Below, piece after piece: positions 2,973-61,669 of a DNA stretch of 64,000 nucleotides; the first letter of the stretch is position 1, and each line of letters opens with the position of its first letter. Source of the stretch: Planctomycetota bacterium (GTDB lineage Bacteria > Planctomycetota > UBA1135 > GCA-002686595); assembly GCA_002720975.1 (NCBI GenBank), contig PBIX01000007.1:58251-122250 (forward strand), given 5' to 3'. Under the pieces are notes generated by a model. The model was not told where the DNA came from and did not search any database. It saw only the letters and a program-made list of their open reading frames with translations. Position numbers and translations under genes: made by a program.

Positions 2973-4040
2973 ATGAAGCTCCAGCTCTACATTCTGCGCC
3001 AGCTTGTCACAGGCTGCGCGTTCTCCGTGGGCGGCCTGTTGGTCGTGGCTCTACCCGGTATCGCCGTGACCACGATCCACAAGGTGCCCCATGCGGACTT
3101 CATGGTGCTGCTCAAGCTCCTGCCCCTTACCTTGCAGACCCTGGTGCCCTACGTGCTCCCCATGTGTTTCCTGCTGGCATGCGTGGCGACCTATGGACGG
3201 CTGGCCGCGGACAGAGAGTGGACGGCGATCCAGATGAGCGGGACCCGTCCCCTGCGGATGATATTGCCTGCGGCAGCCCTGGCCAGCATCCTGGCCTTGG
3301 TCACCTTCTGGATGGTCTCAACCCAGTTACCCCAGATGAAGGAGCGTCTGCGCGATCTGAGGGTTCAGGCTGTGGCCTCTTCCATCGGGAATCTGGGCCC
3401 TGGTCGCACACACATGAAGTTGGGGGATGTTCTTGTCGAGGCTCTCTGGCACGATCCGGAGACGGGTCTTCTGCACGACGTGTACGTACGCGAGCCGGAG
3501 AGGGAAGGACGACCCAAGCGCGACTATCACGCGCAGACCGCGAAAATGCGCGTGAGCAACGGTCTCCTGACTGTGGAAATGACGGACCTGCTATCCGTCG
3601 ATCCGGTGGATGGAAGCATGGGAACGTTCGAGTGGATAGGGTTCGACTATCAGCTCAAGGACCAAGGGTTCGTGCCATCCAACAGGCCGCGGTACCTCAA
3701 GTCGAACGAAATACGACGGCGCTTGGAAGCGGGTGAGGTTTCCTCCGGGATGCGAGATCGCTACCGCTATGAAATCCACTATCGCTACGTCTTGTCGTCG
3801 GCCTACTTCCTGTTCATGTTGCTGGGTGTTTCCACAGGCCTGATCCTGCGCAAGGGAACCCAGCTGGGTGCCTTGGCCGCATCTTCCGGATACGGACTCC
3901 TGCACTACCTGCTCAACATCAAGCTGGCCAAGGATCTGGGCCTGGGGGCCCTTTTCTCGCCGGAAGCGGGTGCCTGGACCCCAACAGCCATCGGCCTCCT
4001 GATCGCCGTGCCCTTCATGCATCGGGCCCTCAAGCGATGA
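2973..4040 (+). CDS. LptF/LptG (YjgP/YjgQ) family LPS export permease
   Basis: Internal ATG at 2973 gives MKLQLYILRQLVTGCAFSVGGLLVVALPG..., a typical family N-terminus. The protein has multiple TM segments and a periplasmic middle domain. The upstream part of ORF 2784.. is probably not translated. Confidence 0.7.
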   Translation: MKLQLYILRQLVTGCAFSVGGLLVVALPGIAVTTIHKVPHADFMVLLKLLPLTLQTLVPYVLPMCFLLACVATYGRLAADREWTAIQMSGTRPLRMILPAAALASILALVTFWMVSTQLPQMKERLRDLRVQAVASSIGNLGPGRTHMKLGDVLVEALWHDPETGLLHDVYVREPEREGRPKRDYHAQTAKMRVSNGLLTVEMTDLLSVDPVDGSMGTFEWIGFDYQLKDQGFVPSNRPRYLKSNEIRRRLEAGEVSSGMRDRYRYEIHYRYVLSSAYFLFMLLGVSTGLILRKGTQLGALAASSGYGLLHYLLNIKLAKDLGLGALFSPEAGAWTPTAIGLLIAVPFMHRALKR

Positions 4041-5146
4041 CCTCCGAACGTCAACTCTCGATCCGTTCCCGCCTCGATCGCTATGTGGGGGCGCACTTCT
4101 TTTGGAGCTATTGCGCCACCCTGGGGCTGATGGTGGGGATGTTCGTCATCTTGGACCTGGCTGGGAAGACAGGGTACTTCGAGACCTGGGAGGATGGGAC
4201 ACGGGTTCCCTTCACCACGGTTCTGTACTACGGGTTGCTGAACCTCCCCTACCAGCTGCTTCAGATTGCTCCCTTTGTGACCCTCTTCGCGGGGATGTTC
4301 ACGGTCAATCGGCTGATGCGCAAGAATGAGGTTGTGGCCGTCCTGTCGGCAGGCGTTTCCGTTCACCGACTACTTCTTCCCGTCTACATCGGAGGCGTGG
4401 TTATCGCATTGGCCATGTTCGCCCTGCGCGAGGGCGTGCGATTCGGTTTTGCAGAGGAGCGTGATGCCCTGGAGGACATGCTCGCGGAGCAGCGCCACGA
4501 ACGGGTCATAGAGAACCTGGTGGTGCGGGATGTGTCCGGCAGTATTGTGGTTCTCGACCGCTTCTACCCGGGGTCGTCGAGTGAGCCAGAACCCAGAGTG
4601 GTCGGGCTCCATGTGCGCCAGCGGCAGGGGGACTCGTATTCGAGCATCCGGGCATCGAGTGCCAAGTGGATAGGGGAGGATCTGATGCTGGAGGATGGGC
4701 GGCGCCAGGTCGTATCTGAGGTGGAGAGCGAGGTGGAACAGGTACACCGTCTTGTGGGGGTGGACGTTACGCCCAGCATTGCGCTCACCTACAATCGCGC
4801 ACAGTCCGAACCCCTGGAGCTCGCCTTCAGCGAGGTGGAGGAGTTGATCCGCCGGGAGCCGGACAATCCAGCGTGGCAGACCCTCTGGCACTACCACCTG
4901 ACCTTCTCCTTGGCGAATCTGGTGCTCTTGCTCGTGGGCCTGCCCCTGATGTTCGACTTCGAGAGGGGGGGCGGGAGCGAACGCATGGCGCTTGGAGGCC
5001 TTCTGTGCGTGTTCTACTTCGGCATTGACTTCGTCTTGCGCGGTTATGGGCTGTCGGGCGGGCTCTCTCCGATCCTGGCGTCCTGGCTGCCCGCCCTGTT
5101 TTTTGGCAGCTTGGGGGCCGCCCTCGTCGACTCGGTGCGCACCTGA
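4037..5146 (+). CDS. LptF/LptG (YjgP/YjgQ) family LPS export permease
   Basis: Has the N-terminal LDRYVGAHFFWSYCATLGLMVGMFVILDL motif and TM-rich ends. An ATGA overlap with the preceding permease gene gives the paired arrangement typical of lptF-lptG. Confidence 0.75.
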   Translation: MTSERQLSIRSRLDRYVGAHFFWSYCATLGLMVGMFVILDLAGKTGYFETWEDGTRVPFTTVLYYGLLNLPYQLLQIAPFVTLFAGMFTVNRLMRKNEVVAVLSAGVSVHRLLLPVYIGGVVIALAMFALREGVRFGFAEERDALEDMLAEQRHERVIENLVVRDVSGSIVVLDRFYPGSSSEPEPRVVGLHVRQRQGDSYSSIRASSAKWIGEDLMLEDGRRQVVSEVESEVEQVHRLVGVDVTPSIALTYNRAQSEPLELAFSEVEELIRREPDNPAWQTLWHYHLTFSLANLVLLLVGLPLMFDFERGGGSERMALGGLLCVFYFGIDFVLRGYGLSGGLSPILASWLPALFFGSLGAALVDSVRT

Positions 5147-43251: not shown

Positions 43252-43671
43252 GGTGGAAGTGAGAGGTCCGATAAGCCGGGTTCTGTTCCTCCCCGTGAGG
43301 GGAGGCGACGACCATTTCTCTGGGACCGGAGTTGCCTCCGGCCTCGAACGACCTACCCGGAAGGTGTGAGCGCGGGTCATCGCCCGTTGACCTTCCCTAT
43401 TTGGTCTTTCTCCGCGTGGGGTTTACCTTGCCAGTCCTGTCACCAGGAACTGCGGTGCGCTCTTACCGCACCCTTTCAGCCTTGCCGCCCGCACCGAAGC
43501 GCGGGGTTGGCGGTCTACTCTCTGTTGCACTTTCCCTGGCCTCACGGCCGGTTGCCGTTAGCAACCACACTGACCCGAGGAGCCCGGACTTTCCTCCCTC
43601 CCAGCTCGCTCGGCCCAGTTGCCTGTGCCTCGCGGTCCTGGAGAGCGGCCGCCTGGGCCTCTCACTTCCGG
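43252..43671 (-). ncRNA. rnpB: RNase P RNA, bacterial type A
   Basis: The reverse complement carries the universal blocks GGAGGGAGGAAAGUCCGGGCUCC, GGGAAAGUGCAACAGAGAG, GGUGCGGUAAGAGCGCACC, CAAGGUAAACCCCAC and ACAGAACCCGGCUUAUCGG. P1 pairs GGAAGUGAGAGG (5', 43658-43669) with CCUCUCACUUCC (3', 43255-43266). The ends are good to about 5 nt. Confidence 0.92.
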
Positions 43672-55332: not shown

Positions 55333-58300
55333 TCAGAAGCGTCGTCGCCGCTTGCTGTAGGGTGGCAGGGGTAGTTTTTGTCCTCCCTTTGAAGGGGGGA
55401 AAAACTGGGAGAAAAGCCCCTTGACCGCCACTTCAGGCCGATCGAGGTTCCCGAGCACGCTGATGCGTAGGAGGCCACTTTGGATCTTGTAGAGCACGCG
55501 AGTGATAGGGCCCAGGCGATCCAGGAGGCTGTAGTTCACCTCCAGGTCATGATTTAGGTTGCCGTTCATCTTCAGCGTGCCGGAGCCGACCAGTGAGAGC
55601 AGGTCGCTCTTGAGTCGGATGTGGTTCATGTCGATCTCGCCCCCAGCCACACCGAAGCGCGCATCAAAGCGGGAGAAGGTGGCCGCAGACTCGAATCCGA
55701 GTTGGGAGAACAGGACCTGGAACACGGGAATGGCCCACAGGTCGGAATTGGTCAGGCGGAAGCGGCCCACCCCCCGGATGCCATTCAGATCGGATAGGCG
55801 TCCGCGCAGCTGCATGTCCGCGTTGATTTTTCCTCGGTTGGCAAAGTCCGAATTGAAGACCCCACGCAACAGTTGCGAGACGTCCACGTCTATCATTTCA
55901 CCGGCCAGGGAGAAGGCGTAGGGCTCGGCCAGGTCCAATGAGAAGAACCCCGAGCGTGCCGAGCCCGGGAGAGCAATGGAGCTCAAGTGTCCCCCTTCAA
56001 AACGTCCGTTCAGGGCTTCGATCGTGAGCCGCGGTTCGAGGTAGGTGACCTGCAAGTTCGTTTGGCTCAGCTTGCGCCCCGCCACTTCGCCCTCAAGATC
56101 ACGCACCTCGGCCGCCGCCCGTACCCGGCCGTTCTCGTAGAACAGGTCGAGGGCGATGTTCTCCGAACGGTGCAGGACCACGGGCAAGCCGAGCCGCAAG
56201 GAGACATCCCGCAAAGTCACGGGACCCTTCAAGTGCATGCCTATCGTCCCGTCCTCTTGGTGGGCAAGCTCGAGCCGTGTGCCGTCCAACTGAATCTCGC
56301 CACTGCAACCCAACTCGCCCAGCAGGGAATCCAGGGTCTGCGCATCCAAGAAGTGCTGCAGGTGCGCCTCATCTATGGGCAGGGATGGTGCTGAGAGTTG
56401 TGCCTCGAGCCACGTGCCTGGAGACCCGGGCTGTAGGACCACTTCGTTGAATGCTACCGGGGATCCAGCCAACTCCGCCGTCAGAGAGGCGAAGGTCCAG
56501 CTGCTTCCGTTGTATTCGCCACCACCTTCCAGCGCTTCCAAGATCGGAGCGTCCTGGGGCCCGATGCGCTTCAGGTGAGTGGAGAGGCCCAGTTGCAATG
56601 CTGGCGGAGGTGAATCCGTGGCCTCGGGGCCCGAGAGGGGCGGCAGCGTGAGCTGTGCCGAGAAGTCCAGGGTCCCGGCCTGCTCCAATTCAGCCAGGGC
56701 AGAAGTGGCGTCCCCTTCGGTGCCGGGGCCGACGAACAGGGCCAGGCTCTCTTTGACCTGGGGGTCCTCCAGATCCAACCCCGCTCCCCAAACGGCGATC
56801 TGGGCCGGGCGCTCTGGCCGTCCATCGGCAGATAGGTACAGCGGCACACGGGAGCCCAGCAGGGGTAGCTGGCCGGAGGTTGCAACGCGCCAGGCCACCT
56901 GCGCAGACCCGAGCGCGTCGCCTTCGGCCTGAGCTTCCTCGTCCGGCCAGCGCAGGTCGAGTGAGGCACGCCCTGCGACGGCCTCCACCACGCCCGGGAG
57001 ATCCGGGGGAGCGGCACGCAGGGGCTCGGCACCCGAGTGAATCTCGACCCACGCCCTTGTCTGTGAATCAGAGGCCTGCACGGAATTCAGCTCCAGGTCC
57101 ACGTGGCCCACCAGTCCCAAGGCGTCCAGATTCTCTGGCGCTTGCCGCCCCAGCCGCTCCCGCAATAGAGGGTCGTTCAGGTCGACTCCGGAGGCTGCGA
57201 CATTCCACCAGACCATCGAGGCTTCGGACGCGCTTTGGGAGCGCCCCAGCACCTGAACGCCACCCTCGCAACCCGCTGCATTTCCAAGCAGGTCAACCGA
57301 GATCGCGCTGCCTCCGGTGCTCCGCCCGTCGATCAAGATAGCCAGATTCCCTCGTGCTGCCTGCAGACCGACTCCCAGCGTCTCGGGGGTCAGGTCGACC
57401 TCTTGCACATCCACCAGGATGTCAGCTGAGAGCTTCTCTTGGCCCGTTTGTCGCCACAGGTCCAACTGGAGATCGAAGCGACCACCGTCCGGTCGGTATT
57501 CCTCGGCTAGCCGCTCGCATCCCTCGAGACCCGATAGTCCGCCCAGGGCTGCTCGAAGTTCATCGTCGACGGCCAAGGCAGTGGCTCGGATGCTCAAGTC
57601 AAACTGCTTTGGTCGATGTTTGCCCTGTTGGCTCGCCGTGGCCAGCCGCAATGGCATCAGATGGCTGGAGCCATTGGCGCGCACCGGGCCCGAGGGATGC
57701 AAGCCTTCCAGGCCGACAAGGGAGAGGCGATCGGGCAGAGCGAGATCTGGGCCGACCAGGTGCGTCACCAGGCCCTCTACTTTCGTGATGGGCAGCGGGA
57801 AGCCGTAGTTGCGCACCCCGCTTCCATCTTCATTGAGGCCGCCCACGTAGGCGCAGGAGGCGTTGCCATCGGCCACCAGGGCGACGGCCCTCTCCAGGGT
57901 CTCAGGCAAGGTGGGGTCCCAGTCGGTGGGGGTACGGAGGCCGACAAAAGCCTCCAATCTGCCGCCCAGGGCCAGACTCTCCCACAGATCCTGGGCCCAC
58001 TCTGCCGACCCGAGCAGCTCCACCAGCTCCTCATCCAGGGCAACCTCCGCCACGTGAGCGAACAACTCGGCCAGGGCATTGGTTGTGCTTGCCCGCGCGA
58101 AGCGAACCTGACCATCAACCCGGGTGTCTTTCCAACGGGCACTCAGGTCTGCCCGACCCTCCCATGCATCACGATCCCAGAGGGAGGGCTCGCGGCTCGG
58201 GGCGAAGCTCGCGGAGCACACCGCCCCAAGATCCACAAGCGTGTGCGCAGGTCGGTTGGCCAACCAGGGCAACCGCACCTCACCCTCGCGCAAGACGGTA

Positions 58301-59142
58301 CGGATATCCAGATGGGGCAGAGCCTCGCGGCCGAAAGCCCAATGGCCCGTTGCATCCAGGTCGGCGCGGCCCTCTGGGTACAGGTCGCGAACCCAATCAA
58401 AGGTGGGCAGCTCGGGCAGGAATCCCGGACCCAGAGGGAGGTCGCGGGCGGTGGAGCGGAACACAAGGCGGCCATCAGTCTCCATTGATCCTTCGAGGAG
58501 AAACTCACCCTGACCCTCTTCGAGTGCAGGGACCATACGTCCCACCAGATGCGGACGTCCCGAGGAGTCCTCTTGCAGTGAAGCGCGGACCGTACCAAGG
58601 GGCATGTCGCCCCACTCCGGTGTCTCCACCTCCAGTCTCAGATCCTCGATGGCCAGAGCTGGGATACGGGTCAGGTCCAAAGGTGTCGGTGCGTTGGGCG
58701 CATCACCGAGCGTGGCCTGTATGCCCTGGACCAGGGGCTCGGAGACGCGCAAGTAGCCGTGGAGGGCCACGGCTTGTTCGAGATACGGTCCCCTGGTCAG
58801 CGACCAACCCAGCCGTAGTTCGAGATCCTGAAGGGCGAGCTCCTCGCGTTGGGCGACGTAGGCAATGCGTCCGATGGTTGCCGAACGGGCTGTCCAGTCG
58901 AGAGCGATCGCGCTCACCTCTATCGTTCCCTCCGCTGCCCCAAGTTGACTCTGCAGGGTGCGTTCAACGAAGCGCTCCAACCGTCCATTGCTTGGGAGCC
59001 AGAGGCCCATTCCCATCAGGATCCAGGCCGTCCAGCCCAGTCCGATCAACACGCGTAGCCACAGGGGTTTGCGTGCCGTCGTCTCAATCGGCGACCCGGG
59101 TACTGCTTGGGGTATCGCTTGAGATGGAGGTTGGGCGTCCAT
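55333..59142 (-). CDS. Giant envelope protein, TamB/AsmA-like (N-terminal TM anchor, long beta-rich body, AsmA-like C-terminal region)
   Basis: About 1270 aa from ATG 59142. It has a single N-terminal TM (LWLRVLIGLGWTAWILMGMGLWL). The C-terminal ...GRFRLTNSDLWAIPVFQVLFSQLG...GEIDMNHIRLKSDLLSLVGSGTLKMNGNLNHDLEVNY... resembles AsmA/TamB C-termini. Confidence 0.5.
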   Translation of the reverse strand: MDAQPPSQAIPQAVPGSPIETTARKPLWLRVLIGLGWTAWILMGMGLWLPSNGRLERFVERTLQSQLGAAEGTIEVSAIALDWTARSATIGRIAYVAQREELALQDLELRLGWSLTRGPYLEQAVALHGYLRVSEPLVQGIQATLGDAPNAPTPLDLTRIPALAIEDLRLEVETPEWGDMPLGTVRASLQEDSSGRPHLVGRMVPALEEGQGEFLLEGSMETDGRLVFRSTARDLPLGPGFLPELPTFDWVRDLYPEGRADLDATGHWAFGREALPHLDIRTVLREGEVRLPWLANRPAHTLVDLGAVCSASFAPSREPSLWDRDAWEGRADLSARWKDTRVDGQVRFARASTTNALAELFAHVAEVALDEELVELLGSAEWAQDLWESLALGGRLEAFVGLRTPTDWDPTLPETLERAVALVADGNASCAYVGGLNEDGSGVRNYGFPLPITKVEGLVTHLVGPDLALPDRLSLVGLEGLHPSGPVRANGSSHLMPLRLATASQQGKHRPKQFDLSIRATALAVDDELRAALGGLSGLEGCERLAEEYRPDGGRFDLQLDLWRQTGQEKLSADILVDVQEVDLTPETLGVGLQAARGNLAILIDGRSTGGSAISVDLLGNAAGCEGGVQVLGRSQSASEASMVWWNVAASGVDLNDPLLRERLGRQAPENLDALGLVGHVDLELNSVQASDSQTRAWVEIHSGAEPLRAAPPDLPGVVEAVAGRASLDLRWPDEEAQAEGDALGSAQVAWRVATSGQLPLLGSRVPLYLSADGRPERPAQIAVWGAGLDLEDPQVKESLALFVGPGTEGDATSALAELEQAGTLDFSAQLTLPPLSGPEATDSPPPALQLGLSTHLKRIGPQDAPILEALEGGGEYNGSSWTFASLTAELAGSPVAFNEVVLQPGSPGTWLEAQLSAPSLPIDEAHLQHFLDAQTLDSLLGELGCSGEIQLDGTRLELAHQEDGTIGMHLKGPVTLRDVSLRLGLPVVLHRSENIALDLFYENGRVRAAAEVRDLEGEVAGRKLSQTNLQVTYLEPRLTIEALNGRFEGGHLSSIALPGSARSGFFSLDLAEPYAFSLAGEMIDVDVSQLLRGVFNSDFANRGKINADMQLRGRLSDLNGIRGVGRFRLTNSDLWAIPVFQVLFSQLGFESAATFSRFDARFGVAGGEIDMNHIRLKSDLLSLVGSGTLKMNGNLNHDLEVNYSLLDRLGPITRVLYKIQSGLLRISVLGNLDRPEVAVKGLFSQFFPPSKGGQKLPLPPYSKRRRRF

Positions 59143-59146
59143 GGGA

Positions 59147-60394
59147 TCAGGACCGGGAGGGGGTCCTGGCCCCCGGCGCCGGAGCTGGAGAGCCAGGCTG
59201 CACAGGCACCTTGGTGTGCTCGAGGGGTGGACTCTGGGACGGAAGGAAAGGCTCGGCTCCACCCACGAACACGCGCGGCAGGCGCCCCAGGGAGCAGCTC
59301 AGCTCGTGGGGAATGGTGCCAAGGCTGTGGGCGAGATCTTCCAGGCGCAGCTCCTCCTCGCCGTCCTTGCCGAGCAGGGTGACTTCCTGTCCCACCCGGA
59401 CTCCATCCAGGTGCCCCACATCTACTGTGGCGTAGTCCATGGACAGTCGTCCCACCAGGGGCGCCCGGCGTCCGCCGATGAGTACGTCCCAGCCCTGCAG
59501 ATTGCGGGGCAGTCCATGCCCGTAGCCGATGGGGAGGGTGGCGATGCGTGTGGGGCGTGGTGCGCGCCAGAGGGAGCCATAGCCCACCGGCGTGTCTGCC
59601 GGAACGTCCTTCAGGAAAACGATCCGGGAGCGCAAGCTCATGACCTGGTTCAAGCCGTCGGGGGGCATCAGGTGTCGGGGTAGTGCGCCGTATGCAGCGA
59701 TGCCCACGCGGACCATTTGCGATCCCGAATCGAGGCCATCGAGACCATCGAGGACGCCGAGGTTCGTGAACAGTCCAGCGGAGTTCAGCGCGTGAATCCA
59801 TCCACATGGCAGACTCTCGTTCCGGGCCTCTTCCACAAGGTCGCGGAACAGGGCTATCTGCGCATGGGAGGATGGGCAGTGCCCCCCCTCTGGAGCGGAC
59901 AGGTGTGTCATCAATCCTGCAAGCTGCAGGTGCGAGGCCTCGTGCACCTCCCGGAGCAGGTCGAGAGCCAAGGATGGGGAGATCCCCAGGCGGCCCATGC
60001 CCGTGTCCACATTCAGATGCACGTGGGCCTGCACTTCCATCATGCGGGCCAGTTCCTGCAGCGACCGACAGCGGTCCACCGCATGGACTCCCACGTGGAT
60101 TTCGTGCCGCAGGCAAGCGGGCAACTCCTCTTCCACCACGGTTCCCAGAATCAGAATGGGTGCCTGGAGCCCAGCCTGACGGAGCTCGAGGGCCTCCTGG
60201 GAGCTTCCCACCCCCAAGGCACCTATCCCACAACGCAGTGCATGATGGGCAATGGCGACGGCTCCGTGGCCATAAGCATCTTGCTTGACCACCAGCATGA
60301 CCCGCACCCCGGAGCCCGCCCGTTGGCATACAGAACGCAGGTTCTGTGCCAGGGCATCGAGGTCGATTTCAGTCCATGCGCGGAAGCTGTCCAT
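59147..60394 (-). CDS. alr: Alanine racemase (with a Pro-rich C-terminal extension)
   Basis: PLP-lysine motif VMLVVKQDAYGHGAVAIA. RVGIAAYG and PVGYG blocks are present. Start taken at ATG 60394 (MDSFRAWTEIDLDAL). Confidence 0.85.
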   Translation of the reverse strand: MDSFRAWTEIDLDALAQNLRSVCQRAGSGVRVMLVVKQDAYGHGAVAIAHHALRCGIGALGVGSSQEALELRQAGLQAPILILGTVVEEELPACLRHEIHVGVHAVDRCRSLQELARMMEVQAHVHLNVDTGMGRLGISPSLALDLLREVHEASHLQLAGLMTHLSAPEGGHCPSSHAQIALFRDLVEEARNESLPCGWIHALNSAGLFTNLGVLDGLDGLDSGSQMVRVGIAAYGALPRHLMPPDGLNQVMSLRSRIVFLKDVPADTPVGYGSLWRAPRPTRIATLPIGYGHGLPRNLQGWDVLIGGRRAPLVGRLSMDYATVDVGHLDGVRVGQEVTLLGKDGEEELRLEDLAHSLGTIPHELSCSLGRLPRVFVGGAEPFLPSQSPPLEHTKVPVQPGSPAPAPGARTPSRS

Positions 60395-60490
60395 CGGTTG
60401 CAAGATAGCGATCGGAGCGGGGTGATCAAAGCAGCCTCCCCGTCTCGAATTCAACCCCGATCCAAAGCGCCCTCAACTCGCATCTGGGCG

Positions 60491-60519
60491 TTGACAATGC
60501 CCCCCAACGGTCGCATTCT
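60491..60519 (+). promoter_or_regulatory. Candidate promoter for the histone-fold gene
   Basis: Perfect TTGACA (60491-60496), a 17-nt spacer, then cattct (60514-60519). It lies about 83 nt upstream of ATG 60602. Pattern match by eye. Confidence 0.3.
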
Positions 60520-60601
60520 CTTCGGCCCGATACGGACTTCACATTTCCGCCCCGATACCCTCGGGGCACCACTGCCCACATTGGGCAAGGCAATCAACAT
60601 C

Positions 60602-60838
60602 ATGGCCAAGAAGGCACGCAAGAAAGCTAAGAAGAAGGCAACCCGCAAGAAGGCCGGCAAGAAGAAGAAGGGCGGTGATCTGATCATCAGCAAGGCGCGC
60701 ACCAAAGCCGCCGCCAGCCTCAACGTCTCCAGCGATTTCTACGTCGCCCTGGACGAGTGTGTCCGCGCTTGCATTGCCGCTGCCGAAGATCGCGCCAACG
60801 CCAACAAGCGTAAGACGCTTCGTCCCCAGGACCTGTAG
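60602..60838 (+). CDS. Histone-fold (DUF1931/Bd0055-like) small DNA-binding protein with a Lys-rich N-terminal tail
   Basis: MAKKARKKAKKKATRKKAGKKKKGG-DLIISKARTKAAASLNVSSDFYVALDECVRACIAAAEDRANANKRKTLRPQDL. The C-terminal RKTLxxxDL matches the histone L2/alpha3 motif (archaeal GRKTIxxEDI). It is the 3' in-frame end of a long spurious track ORF (59717..60838). GC3-rich codons and a strong hairpin downstream. Confidence 0.6.
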   Translation: MAKKARKKAKKKATRKKAGKKKKGGDLIISKARTKAAASLNVSSDFYVALDECVRACIAAAEDRANANKRKTLRPQDL

Positions 60839-60932
60839 GAACCATTCGGTGAGGCCCAGGCGGTCTCCGCCGGCCGCCGGGCATTACAAGTTCTCGGAAC
60901 ACGATCGTTCCCAAGGATTGAAGCCCGTTCGA

Positions 60933-60969
60933 GATGCCCCGCACCGCGCACAGCGTGGTGTGGGGCATC
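60933..60969. terminator. 15-bp-stem hairpin between the convergent histone-fold gene and tsaB
   Basis: gatgccccgcaccgc / loop gcacagc / gtggtgtggggcatc. The stem has 13 Watson-Crick pairs and 2 GU pairs by eye. Confidence 0.5.
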
Positions 60970-61003
60970 TGTCGTAGGGGGGCGGCGTAGGAGTATAAGG
61001 GCC

Positions 61004-61669
61004 CTATCGCTTGCGGACGTTGGCTGCGAATGGGCGCAGGTAGAGCGGCTGAACTTCAGCGGGATTGAGCGGGCCAGCCGCCTTGAGTTGAGCGATGCCC
61101 AAGGGCAGCAGGTGTTGGGCTTCTGGGCCCGTACTCGTGCGCAGGAGCGAGCGTTCTCCTTCAACCAGCCCGGCGGTAGCAGCACTGGATGCGTCGCACA
61201 CGATGCAATCCGCGGAGGGCAGGACGGCGCGCCACTCGTCCGCAGCACAGACCATGGGGGGGATGACTGCGCGAACGCCCGTCGCTGTGCGCTCGTACTG
61301 AGCGCCATAGAACTGGCGTGAGCGTGCGTCGAGTAGGACGGTCCCACACTCGCCCTCTTTCAGGTGCGCCATGGCGAGCGCCTCGAACGAGGGCAGGGCT
61401 TGCAGTTGCGCGCCAGATCCACGACTCAGACCCAGGGCCGTTGCGATTCCTACTCGCAGGCCGGTATAGCTTCCCGGTCCCGTTCCGACGATGACGGTCT
61501 GGATGGTCGAGGCGTCTTCGCCGAGCGTGCTCAGCAGGGATTCCAGCGCCCCAAGGAGGTCGCTGGCATGGCGTCGCCCCTCTTCCAGGGTGAGGGCCAG
61601 GGTCCTCTCCGCACTCCTCACCGCGATGGACGGTGGGCGAGAGGACGTCTCCAGGGCGACGATCGTCAT
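61004..61669 (-). CDS. tsaB: tRNA threonylcarbamoyladenosine biosynthesis protein TsaB
   Basis: MTIVALETSSRPPSIAV... with VIVGTGPGSYTGLRVGIATALGL. The start overlaps the glmM stop. Confidence 0.85.
   Translation of the reverse strand: MTIVALETSSRPPSIAVRSAERTLALTLEEGRRHASDLLGALESLLSTLGEDASTIQTVIVGTGPGSYTGLRVGIATALGLSRGSGAQLQALPSFEALAMAHLKEGECGTVLLDARSRQFYGAQYERTATGVRAVIPPMVCAADEWRAVLPSADCIVCDASSAATAGLVEGERSLLRTSTGPEAQHLLPLGIAQLKAAGPLNPAEVQPLYLRPFAANVRKR

Follow-up and report, generated by a model that had tools for sequence, protein, structure and literature searches.

The stretch of 64,000 nucleotides analysed here (the window) comes from contig PBIX01000007.1 of a Planctomycetota bacterium and contains, on the plus strand at 60602..60838, a gene of 78 codons followed by a TAG stop, whose product is very probably a histone of the face-to-face (FtF) type with a translated, lysine-rich N-terminal tail. 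The gene was defined from its sequence, its translation and its homologues: the ATG lies at 60602, the stop codon ends at 60838, and the 78-residue product reads MAKKARKKAKKKATRKKAGKKKKGG-DLIISKARTKAAASLNVSSDFYVALDECVRACIAAAEDRANANKRKTLRPQDL, that is, a tail of 25 residues joined to a core of 53. Bacterial histones have been discovered recently, experimental studies cover HBb and HLp only, and HLp is the only characterized bacterial member of the FtF class (PMC12701072). Tailed FtF histones are widespread in Planctomycetota, and the locus offers a clean and well-delimited example of them. Because both the class and its tails are already present in the literature, it leaves current understanding unchanged; what it contributes is a corrected gene model (the start codon), the definition of regulatory elements and chromosomal position, and the existence of orthologues in cultured strains, which makes the role of a polycationic tail on a bacterial histone directly testable.

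The gene constitutes the 3' end of a 373-residue open reading frame (ORF; 59717..60838), which is antisense to a gene for alanine racemase and is open only because the genome is GC-rich (64%). The initial annotation had recognized a gene hidden within this spurious frame, and both the coordinates and the translation that it gave match exactly. A protein database search yielded 302 homologues, whose names in the source include 'DUF1931' and 'histone H3/H4', and 62 of them were used to build a family profile (alignment A1).

The histone-fold core and its subfamily

The presence of a histone fold with a truncated α3 helix in the 53-residue core (residues 26-78; 60677..60835, plus strand) was confirmed by AlphaFold2, Foldseek, the profile search and the invariant columns of the family. 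In the AlphaFold2 model of the monomer, the mean predicted local distance difference test score (pLDDT) was 73, with values of 78-93 in the core and below 50 for residues 1-20, so that this prediction, which had been proposed earlier as a check, yielded a histone fold plus a disordered tail. Helix α1 spans residues ~31-38 and α2 residues 44-67, loop L2 carries R70-K71-T72, and α3 is reduced to one turn (75-77), the chain stopping at L78, just past the RxTxxxxD motif. When the model was compared with the PDB by Foldseek, HTkC (9f2c), HLp (9qt0/9qt1) and HBb ranked first and all top matches were histones, the leading ones showing TM-scores of 0.65-0.75 (normalised to the target), root-mean-square deviations (rmsd) of 2.0-3.3 Å and a probability of 1.00; NF-Y subunits and eukaryotic core histones occupied the next ranks. 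The family profile, in turn, retrieved from the PDB HTkC (9F2C, E 3.9e-8) and HLp (9QT0, E 1.4e-5). The proposal of a histone-fold singlet made in the initial annotation is thus borne out, as is the C-terminal hallmark RKT[ILV]xxxD[ILV] on which it relied, the protein ending in R70-K71-T72-L73-x3-D77-L78.

A number of search results weigh in the opposite direction. As the domain is short, the Foldseek E-values were modest (4e-3 to 4e-2); the core alone matched Pfam CBFD_NFYB_HMF with an E-value of 0.058 and 14.1 bits, against a cut-off of 21.4; single-sequence phmmer searches of the PDB gave weak matches (9F2C, E 0.02; 9QT0, E 0.14); and a Pfam scan of the 62 homologues produced no DUF1931 or histone match at E < 0.01. 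An NCBIfam search with the single sequence gave no match, and the Pfam scan did not report DUF1931 for the window protein. The test with these two Pfam models that the initial annotation had suggested therefore came out negative, neither gathering threshold being reached, and membership of DUF1931 or CBFD_NFYB_HMF cannot be claimed.

The crucial information regarding the subfamily came from the residues that build the tetramer. Schwab et al. 2024 described FtF histones as torus-shaped tetramers with conserved R48, N52, R54, T56 and D61, while 'bacterial dimer' histones of the HBb type lack R48 and N52 (PMC11390915). In HLp, the tetramer interface is formed by R49, N53 and R55, and the R55-D62 pair makes up the RD clamp (PMC12701072). 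In the window protein, R64, N68, R70, T72 and D77 are invariant across the 62 homologues (signature R-x3-N-x-R-x-T-x4-D); these residues match, with the same spacing, R48/N52/R54/T56/D61 of the FtF hidden Markov model (PMC11390915) and align in the profile alignment with HLp R49/N53/R55/T57/D62 (PMC12701072). The RD clamp (R70-D77) and the L2 threonine (T72) are thereby kept in the core, and the Ser-Lys motif of α1, described as bacterial-specific (PMC10627809), is present as S30-K31. Considering the invariance of the five residues and the profile matches to HTkC and HLp, the protein was classified as FtF/HLp-like and not as Bd0055-like; the DUF1931/Bd0055 type favoured in the initial annotation is not supported.

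The notion that the protein could nevertheless belong with the 'bacterial dimer' histones (HBb/Bd0055 type), acting as a dimer that bends or coats DNA with no wrapping tetramer, appears unlikely, yet it draws on several observations. HBb structures are found among the top structural matches (TM-scores of 0.62-0.70, normalised to the target), bacterial dimers have been reported in Planctomycetota (PMC11390915), and the protein displays, as bacterial dimers do, the RKTxxxxD motif with Lys71 (R70-K71-T72...D77) and a basic α1 (K31, R33, K35). However, these last two traits are common to both families and hence do not discriminate between them. The absence of R48 and N52 that distinguishes bacterial dimers is not observed here, as the equivalent R64 and N68 are present and invariant. 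In addition, the family profile finds HTkC and HLp and not HBb among its PDB matches at E ≤ 1, and the identity in the Foldseek structural alignments is 18-23% to HBb versus 30-34% to FtF members. Three features do speak against a plain FtF assignment: the HLp interface residues S52, T61 and F63 are replaced by A67, Q76 and L78; the α1/L1 region is three residues shorter than that of HLp; and position 71 is Lys or Arg, as in 'bacterial dimer' and nucleosomal histones, giving the family mixed characters.

The N-terminal tail and the choice of start codon

The remainder of the protein, residues 1-25 (MAKKARKKAKKKATRKKAGKKKKGG; 60602..60676, plus strand), is predicted to be disordered, with a pLDDT below 50 for residues 1-20. 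It is made of 13 Lys and 2 Arg among 25 residues (15 basic residues, and not about 17 as had been counted before) and contains no Asp or Glu. In the window, no in-frame ATG, GTG or TTG is found between codon 1 and the stop codon (codons 27-29 being CTG ATC ATC); as codon 1 is the only such codon, the invariant D26-L27-I28-I29-S30-K31 block could not be made from a canonical internal start. The analysis was then extended to 80 genomic loci, fetched from at least 570, in 78 of which the core was located. All 78 show an ATG, then A-[KRA]-[KR], and then an open, K/R-rich frame of 10-48 codons (median 30) that leads into the core. In several of them, such as L002, L003, L005, L007, L010, L013, L016, L019, L035 and L074, the tail ATG is the only canonical start past the upstream in-frame stop. 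The pooled tails (2,037 residues) consist of 40% Lys, 24% Ala, 10% Thr, 9% Arg and 7% Gly, with Asp and Glu nearly nil. The GC content at the three codon positions of the pooled tails was 0.44/0.57/0.81, with an AAG:AAA ratio of 699:114, a third-position bias that is that of coding sequence in these genomes, and protein-level conservation upstream of the ATG was absent in the 78 loci. Altogether, the sole start codon, the tails kept in frame at every locus and the coding-type base composition indicate that the lysine-rich tail is part of the translated protein, as the initial annotation had maintained; the survey of tails among homologues that it had recommended thus gave an in-frame K/R-rich tail in 78 of 78 loci, and tail-less singlets in the wider family.

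Public start calls for this gene are in conflict, as they predict proteins of 113 (P0001), 78 (P0002) and 52 residues (P0016). The 113-residue version starts at ATG 60497, immediately after the -35 hexamer TTGACA, and the 52-residue version, named 'DUF1931' in the NCBI annotation of the metagenome-assembled genome (MAG) UWMA-0345 (locus L001, where the gene lies at 4001-4237), starts at codon 27, which is CTG. The evidence from the sequences favours the 78-residue model, and the other two look like mis-annotations. Should the Lys-rich segment lie outside the protein, translation would begin either near codon 27 (52 residues) or at ATG 60497 (113 residues). This proposal, which merits hardly any credence, could invoke the conflicting calls themselves, the ATG or TTG found at the Leu27 position in 17 of the 78 relatives and the existence of tail-less homologues in other lineages. 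However, the start at codon 27 was rejected for the window because the codon is CTG, no ATG, GTG or TTG follows codon 1, and the in-frame tail is universal among the relatives, every one of which keeps the ATG, the A-[KRA]-[KR] opening and an open, acidic-free K/R-rich frame whose third-position GC bias is typical of coding sequence. Moreover, a Shine-Dalgarno-like motif (AGG, GGA or GAG at -20..-5) precedes the ATG of the 78-residue model in 63 of 77 loci. The start at ATG 60497 was rejected as well, on the grounds that the extension it adds upstream is not conserved in the relatives and does not stay open in them, and that this codon directly adjoins the conserved -35 hexamer, and thus should lie upstream of the transcript.

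With the 78-residue model adopted, the tail can be described as a low-complexity K/A/T/R segment of variable length in which no column is conserved after the opening M-A-[KRA]-[KR]; APARK repeats occur in the tails of some relatives (L008, L037). Among 86 representatives of the wider family, taken at 50% identity, tail-less singlets of 55-59 residues begin precisely at M-A-D-[LM]-I-I-S-K, so that the tail can be viewed as a separate, lineage-specific addition whose boundary lies sharply at G25/D26. The initial annotation had called the tail eukaryote-like. This description is adequate insofar as the extension is N-terminal, predicted to be disordered (pLDDT), basic (15 of 25 Lys or Arg) and translated, but it fails as regards the sequence, which shows no conserved positions and none of the conserved modification sites seen in H3 and H4, and the resemblance is one of analogy only. 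Nor was any modifier gene found in the conserved neighbourhood. In composition, the C-terminal domain of histone H1 and the Lys/Ala/Pro tails of actinobacterial HU were judged to be nearer to this tail than the tails of H3 and H4 are.

Some observations on variation within the family are worth recording. The relatives with ATG or TTG at the Leu27 position ('DMIISK'; the equivalent of 60680-60682 in the window) still encode the upstream tail; they include L011, L012, L023, L027, L033, L043, L048, L049, L051, L053-L055, L058, L059, L065, L072, L078 and L080. In these species internal initiation at codon 27 could give rise to a tail-less isoform or, alternatively, the difference could be merely a conservative Leu-to-Met change. 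Two sub-clades seem to be distinguishable by eye, one with short tails of 10-16 residues ('MAAKKNKK...') and the L1 sequence 'KAAVKKSNVSS' (for instance, L020, L028 and L045), which contains an extra pair of basic residues, and another with tails of 25-48 residues and the L1 sequence 'KAAAGINVSG' (for instance, L005-L007). Judged in the same way, tail charge and loop charge seem to be traded off against each other. The -10-like promoter hexamer also separates the two sub-clades (AAACT[CT] versus CATTCT). Besides the tail-less singlets, the wider family holds doublets of ~120 residues with two FtF-like cores per chain; these doublets and singlets are represented by P0135, P0152, P0157, P0162, P0168, P0174, P0178, P0180, P0182, P0189 and P0190. 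P0145 (160 residues) combines a basic N-terminal tail with an acidic C-terminal extension of 80 residues. Three very large proteins, P0121 (3139 residues), P0122 (5084 residues) and P0138 (1628 residues), scored up to 113 bits against the 53-residue core with no aligned stretch, and these scores are probably an artefact of composition, bias or repeats.

Proposed mode of action and relation to known histones

The above observations can be integrated into a model, which we regard as likely, in which the protein is a small nucleoid-organising FtF-family histone (of the HLp and HTkC family) fused to a lineage-specific polycationic N-terminal tail. HLp is a tetramer in solution that wraps ~60 bp of DNA and compacts it (PMC12701072). 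By homology with HLp, two handshake dimers would close face-to-face into a torus-shaped tetramer, and this would wrap ~60 bp of DNA without sequence specificity and compact it. The DNA would be contacted through α1 (S30-K31, R33, K35) and loops L1 and L2 (S43/S44 and K71/T72). With four tails per tetramer, a charge of about +60 would be gained, judging from their composition, and the tails may behave as flexible electrostatic arms that raise the affinity for DNA, neutralise DNA that is wrapped or lies nearby, and favour its compaction or bridging. The nearest functional parallels to such arms would be the C-terminal domain of histone H1 and the Lys/Ala-rich disordered regions of mycobacterial MDP1. 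That the tetramer, the wrapping of DNA and the function of the tail are all inferred counts against this model.

A different role has also to be considered, in which the protein has a histone fold but takes no part in organising DNA and is, for instance, a small basic protein associated with RNA or ribosomes whose polylysine tail binds RNA. Lys-rich extensions are typical of ribosomal proteins, the tail gave a chance-level match to ribosomal protein L34, and the neighbours of the gene are housekeeping genes (tsaB, glmM, alr) with no chromatin context. This interpretation is very unlikely, however, as the nearest relatives of known function (HLp, HTkC and HBb) are all DNA-binding histones, the DNA-contacting positions (the S-K motif of α1, K35 and T72) are conserved, and the match to L34 is non-significant (E 0.3).

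At the other extreme, the tailed FtF histone might be the principal chromatin protein of this Planctomycetota lineage, with the tail as a regulated module that tunes nucleoid compaction, for example by lysine acetylation or by alternative initiation at Leu27/Met27 to give tail-less isoforms. We consider this a long shot. Were a regulated, H1-like tail real, it would represent a counterpart of tail-based chromatin regulation that evolved independently in bacteria, and the functions of core and linker histones would be joined in a single 8-kDa protein.

Among the known systems, HLp from Leptospira perolatii/interrogans (PDB 9QT0-9QT2; PMC12701072) shares with the window protein the bacterial α3-truncated fold, the RD clamp, the Ser-Lys region of α1 and the C-terminal block R-x3-N-K-R-x-T-[LV]-R-P-x-D-[FL], and of the bacterial structures it gave the best match (rmsd 2.0-2.4 Å, with 34% identity over 56 residues). 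However, the form of HLp that was studied has 63 residues, and its N-terminus is short and weakly basic, with 6-7 disordered residues (PMC12701072), while the tail of the window protein has 25 residues and a charge of +15, and those of its relatives reach 48 residues. Thermococcus kodakarensis HTkC (PDB 9F2C; PMC11390915) is the best profile match and the best Foldseek match and bears the signature of the torus-tetramer family, but it is archaeal, tail-less and 59 residues long; archaeal FtF histones generally have no tails (PMC11390915). Finally, HBb/Bd0055 from Bdellovibrio (PDB 8CMP, 8FVX and 9EZZ) also has a short bacterial α3-truncated fold and the RKT...D motif, but it is a dimer without the R/N tetramer residues, has no polybasic tail and falls outside the family-profile matches.

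With respect to the tail, the initial annotation had stated that tails are rare in prokaryotic histones and that no tailed bacterial histone had been characterized, a premise that is outdated or overstated. Schwab et al. 2024 found FtF histones in Planctomycetota, Spirochaetota, Bdellovibrionota and Myxococcota, and reported that tails are frequent in bacterial FtF histones, carry a positive charge in most cases and show no sequence conservation (PMC11390915). The window protein represents the same phenomenon; that survey was computational and presented tail-length histograms only, and the evidence given here on the start codon, the composition of the tail, the conserved promoter, the terminator and the synteny goes beyond its text. 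What survives of the claim of novelty is that no experimental study of such a long bacterial histone tail was found in the searchable literature. The C-terminal domain of histone H1 is a low-complexity, K/A/T/P-rich disordered polycation similar to this tail. A comparable acidic-free disordered polycation, rich in the same four residues, is attached to a small DNA-binding fold as the C-terminal region of MDP1/HupB; the disordered region of mycobacterial MDP1 has been reported to organise the genome (PMC5974015). In contrast to the tail described here, those of MDP1/HupB and H1 are C-terminal and are attached to an HU or a winged-helix fold, so that the relation is of analogy and not of homology. 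The tails of eukaryotic core histones and of Asgard archaeal histones are, like that of the window protein, N-terminal, disordered, basic and placed before a histone fold, but the tails of the present family (10-48 residues) have no conserved positions or recognisable modification motifs, and the fold to which they are attached is not of the nucleosomal type.

Transcription signals, distribution and genomic context

Upstream of the gene, the perfect -35 hexamer pointed out in the initial annotation (TTGACA, 60491..60496, plus strand) is conserved across relatives. It occurs no more than 260 nt upstream in 64 of 77 loci, compared with 3.5% of random windows, and its median distance to the ATG in the 77 loci is 112 nt. 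Exactly 17 nt past it lies a -10-like hexamer, CATTCT (60514..60519, plus strand), likewise conserved across relatives: at this spacing CATTCT appears in 27 loci, CAnnCT variants in ~16 more and AAACT[CT] in one clade, the spacers being variable. A generic scan for sigma-70 promoters gave no full match, CATTCT being below its threshold. The position of the promoter implies a putative leader of ~75 nt. A weak Shine-Dalgarno-like AAGG, read from the sequence, lies 11 nt before the ATG (60587..60590, plus strand) and may serve in ribosome binding.

Several features of the putative leader were noticed as well. In many of the loci L003-L080, GCGTCAC (or GCGTAAC/GCGTTAC) follows ~7-9 nt past the -10-like hexamer and is probably a start-site or leader motif; the clade of the window has CGATACGGACTTCA in its place (about 60520-60545). 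Two small GC hairpins, at 60550-60566 (CCCCGA...TCGGGG) and ~60574-60586 (GCCC...GGGC), are candidates for a structured leader; they are kept in five close relatives, but show just a single compensatory pair, and their covariation term is positive. A terminator-like match returned by the generic scan on the minus strand in the tail-coding region was discarded, as it reflects the AAG-rich sequence.

Downstream, between the convergent histone and tsaB genes, lies a terminator-like hairpin with a stem of 18 bp, a loop of 3 nt and no T-run (60932..60970, plus strand). The hairpin anticipated in the initial annotation is thus present, with a stem of 18 and not 15 bp. The intergenic fold that contains it has a z-score of -4.9, and the hairpin is kept in 5 relatives with 2 compensatory pairs; a strong downstream hairpin, mostly without a T-run, occurs in 70 of 75 loci versus 37 of 75 shuffled controls. 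The conserved promoter, this hairpin and the opposite orientation of the neighbours support the earlier proposal of a stand-alone, independently transcribed gene. As for its high expression, HLp and HBb are abundant and essential in their hosts, but for the window gene a high level is inferred only, from promoter conservation and from the likeness to HLp and HBb.

A scan of one genome per GTDB species gave at least 570 loci, nearly all in Planctomycetota MAGs, and histone genes are known to persist phylogenetically in this phylum (PMC10627809). Rohdeia mirabilis Pla163, Saltatorellus ferox Poly30 and Engelhardtia mirabilis Pla133 are among the cultured carriers; a few carrier MAGs are labelled Eisenbacteria or similar, and one relative in the protein database comes from a Myxococcota MAG. 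At the nearest locus (L001, MAG UWMA-0345) the DNA is 86% identical to the window and the histone gene 99% identical, with 8 synonymous changes and 1 non-synonymous change in the core.

The histone gene is a single plus-strand gene within a block of minus-strand housekeeping genes, in the order large TamB-like ORF (-), alr (-), histone (+), tsaB-like (-) and glmM-like (-). This order recurs in 43-57 of 80 loci, including those in which the identity of the neighbours is as low as 40-55%, and the histone gene is an old, vertically inherited core gene, not a mobile one. The divergent alanine racemase gene (59147..60454, minus strand; Pfam Ala_racemase_N and Ala_racemase_C) is syntenic in 43 of 80 loci, and the convergent TsaB-like gene (61004..61669, minus strand; Pfam TsaD-family domain) in 52 of 80. 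Upstream of alr, an ORF of 1309 residues (55333-59262, minus strand) has syntenic relatives in 46 of 80 loci, with 21-80% identity; it gave no Pfam match at E ≤ 1e-5, and only its size and its C-terminal sequence prompted the guess that it is TamB/AsmA-like. The annotated start gives it a 116-nt overlap with alr, and for this reason the true start probably lies further downstream.

In the rest of the window, a search found neither HU nor a second histone copy, and 64 kb tell little about the whole genome. ARAGORN detected no tRNA genes in the 64 kb. On the minus strand, at 43256-43664, the window carries a class A RNase P RNA (RF00010), identified by a full-length model match of 278.5 bits.

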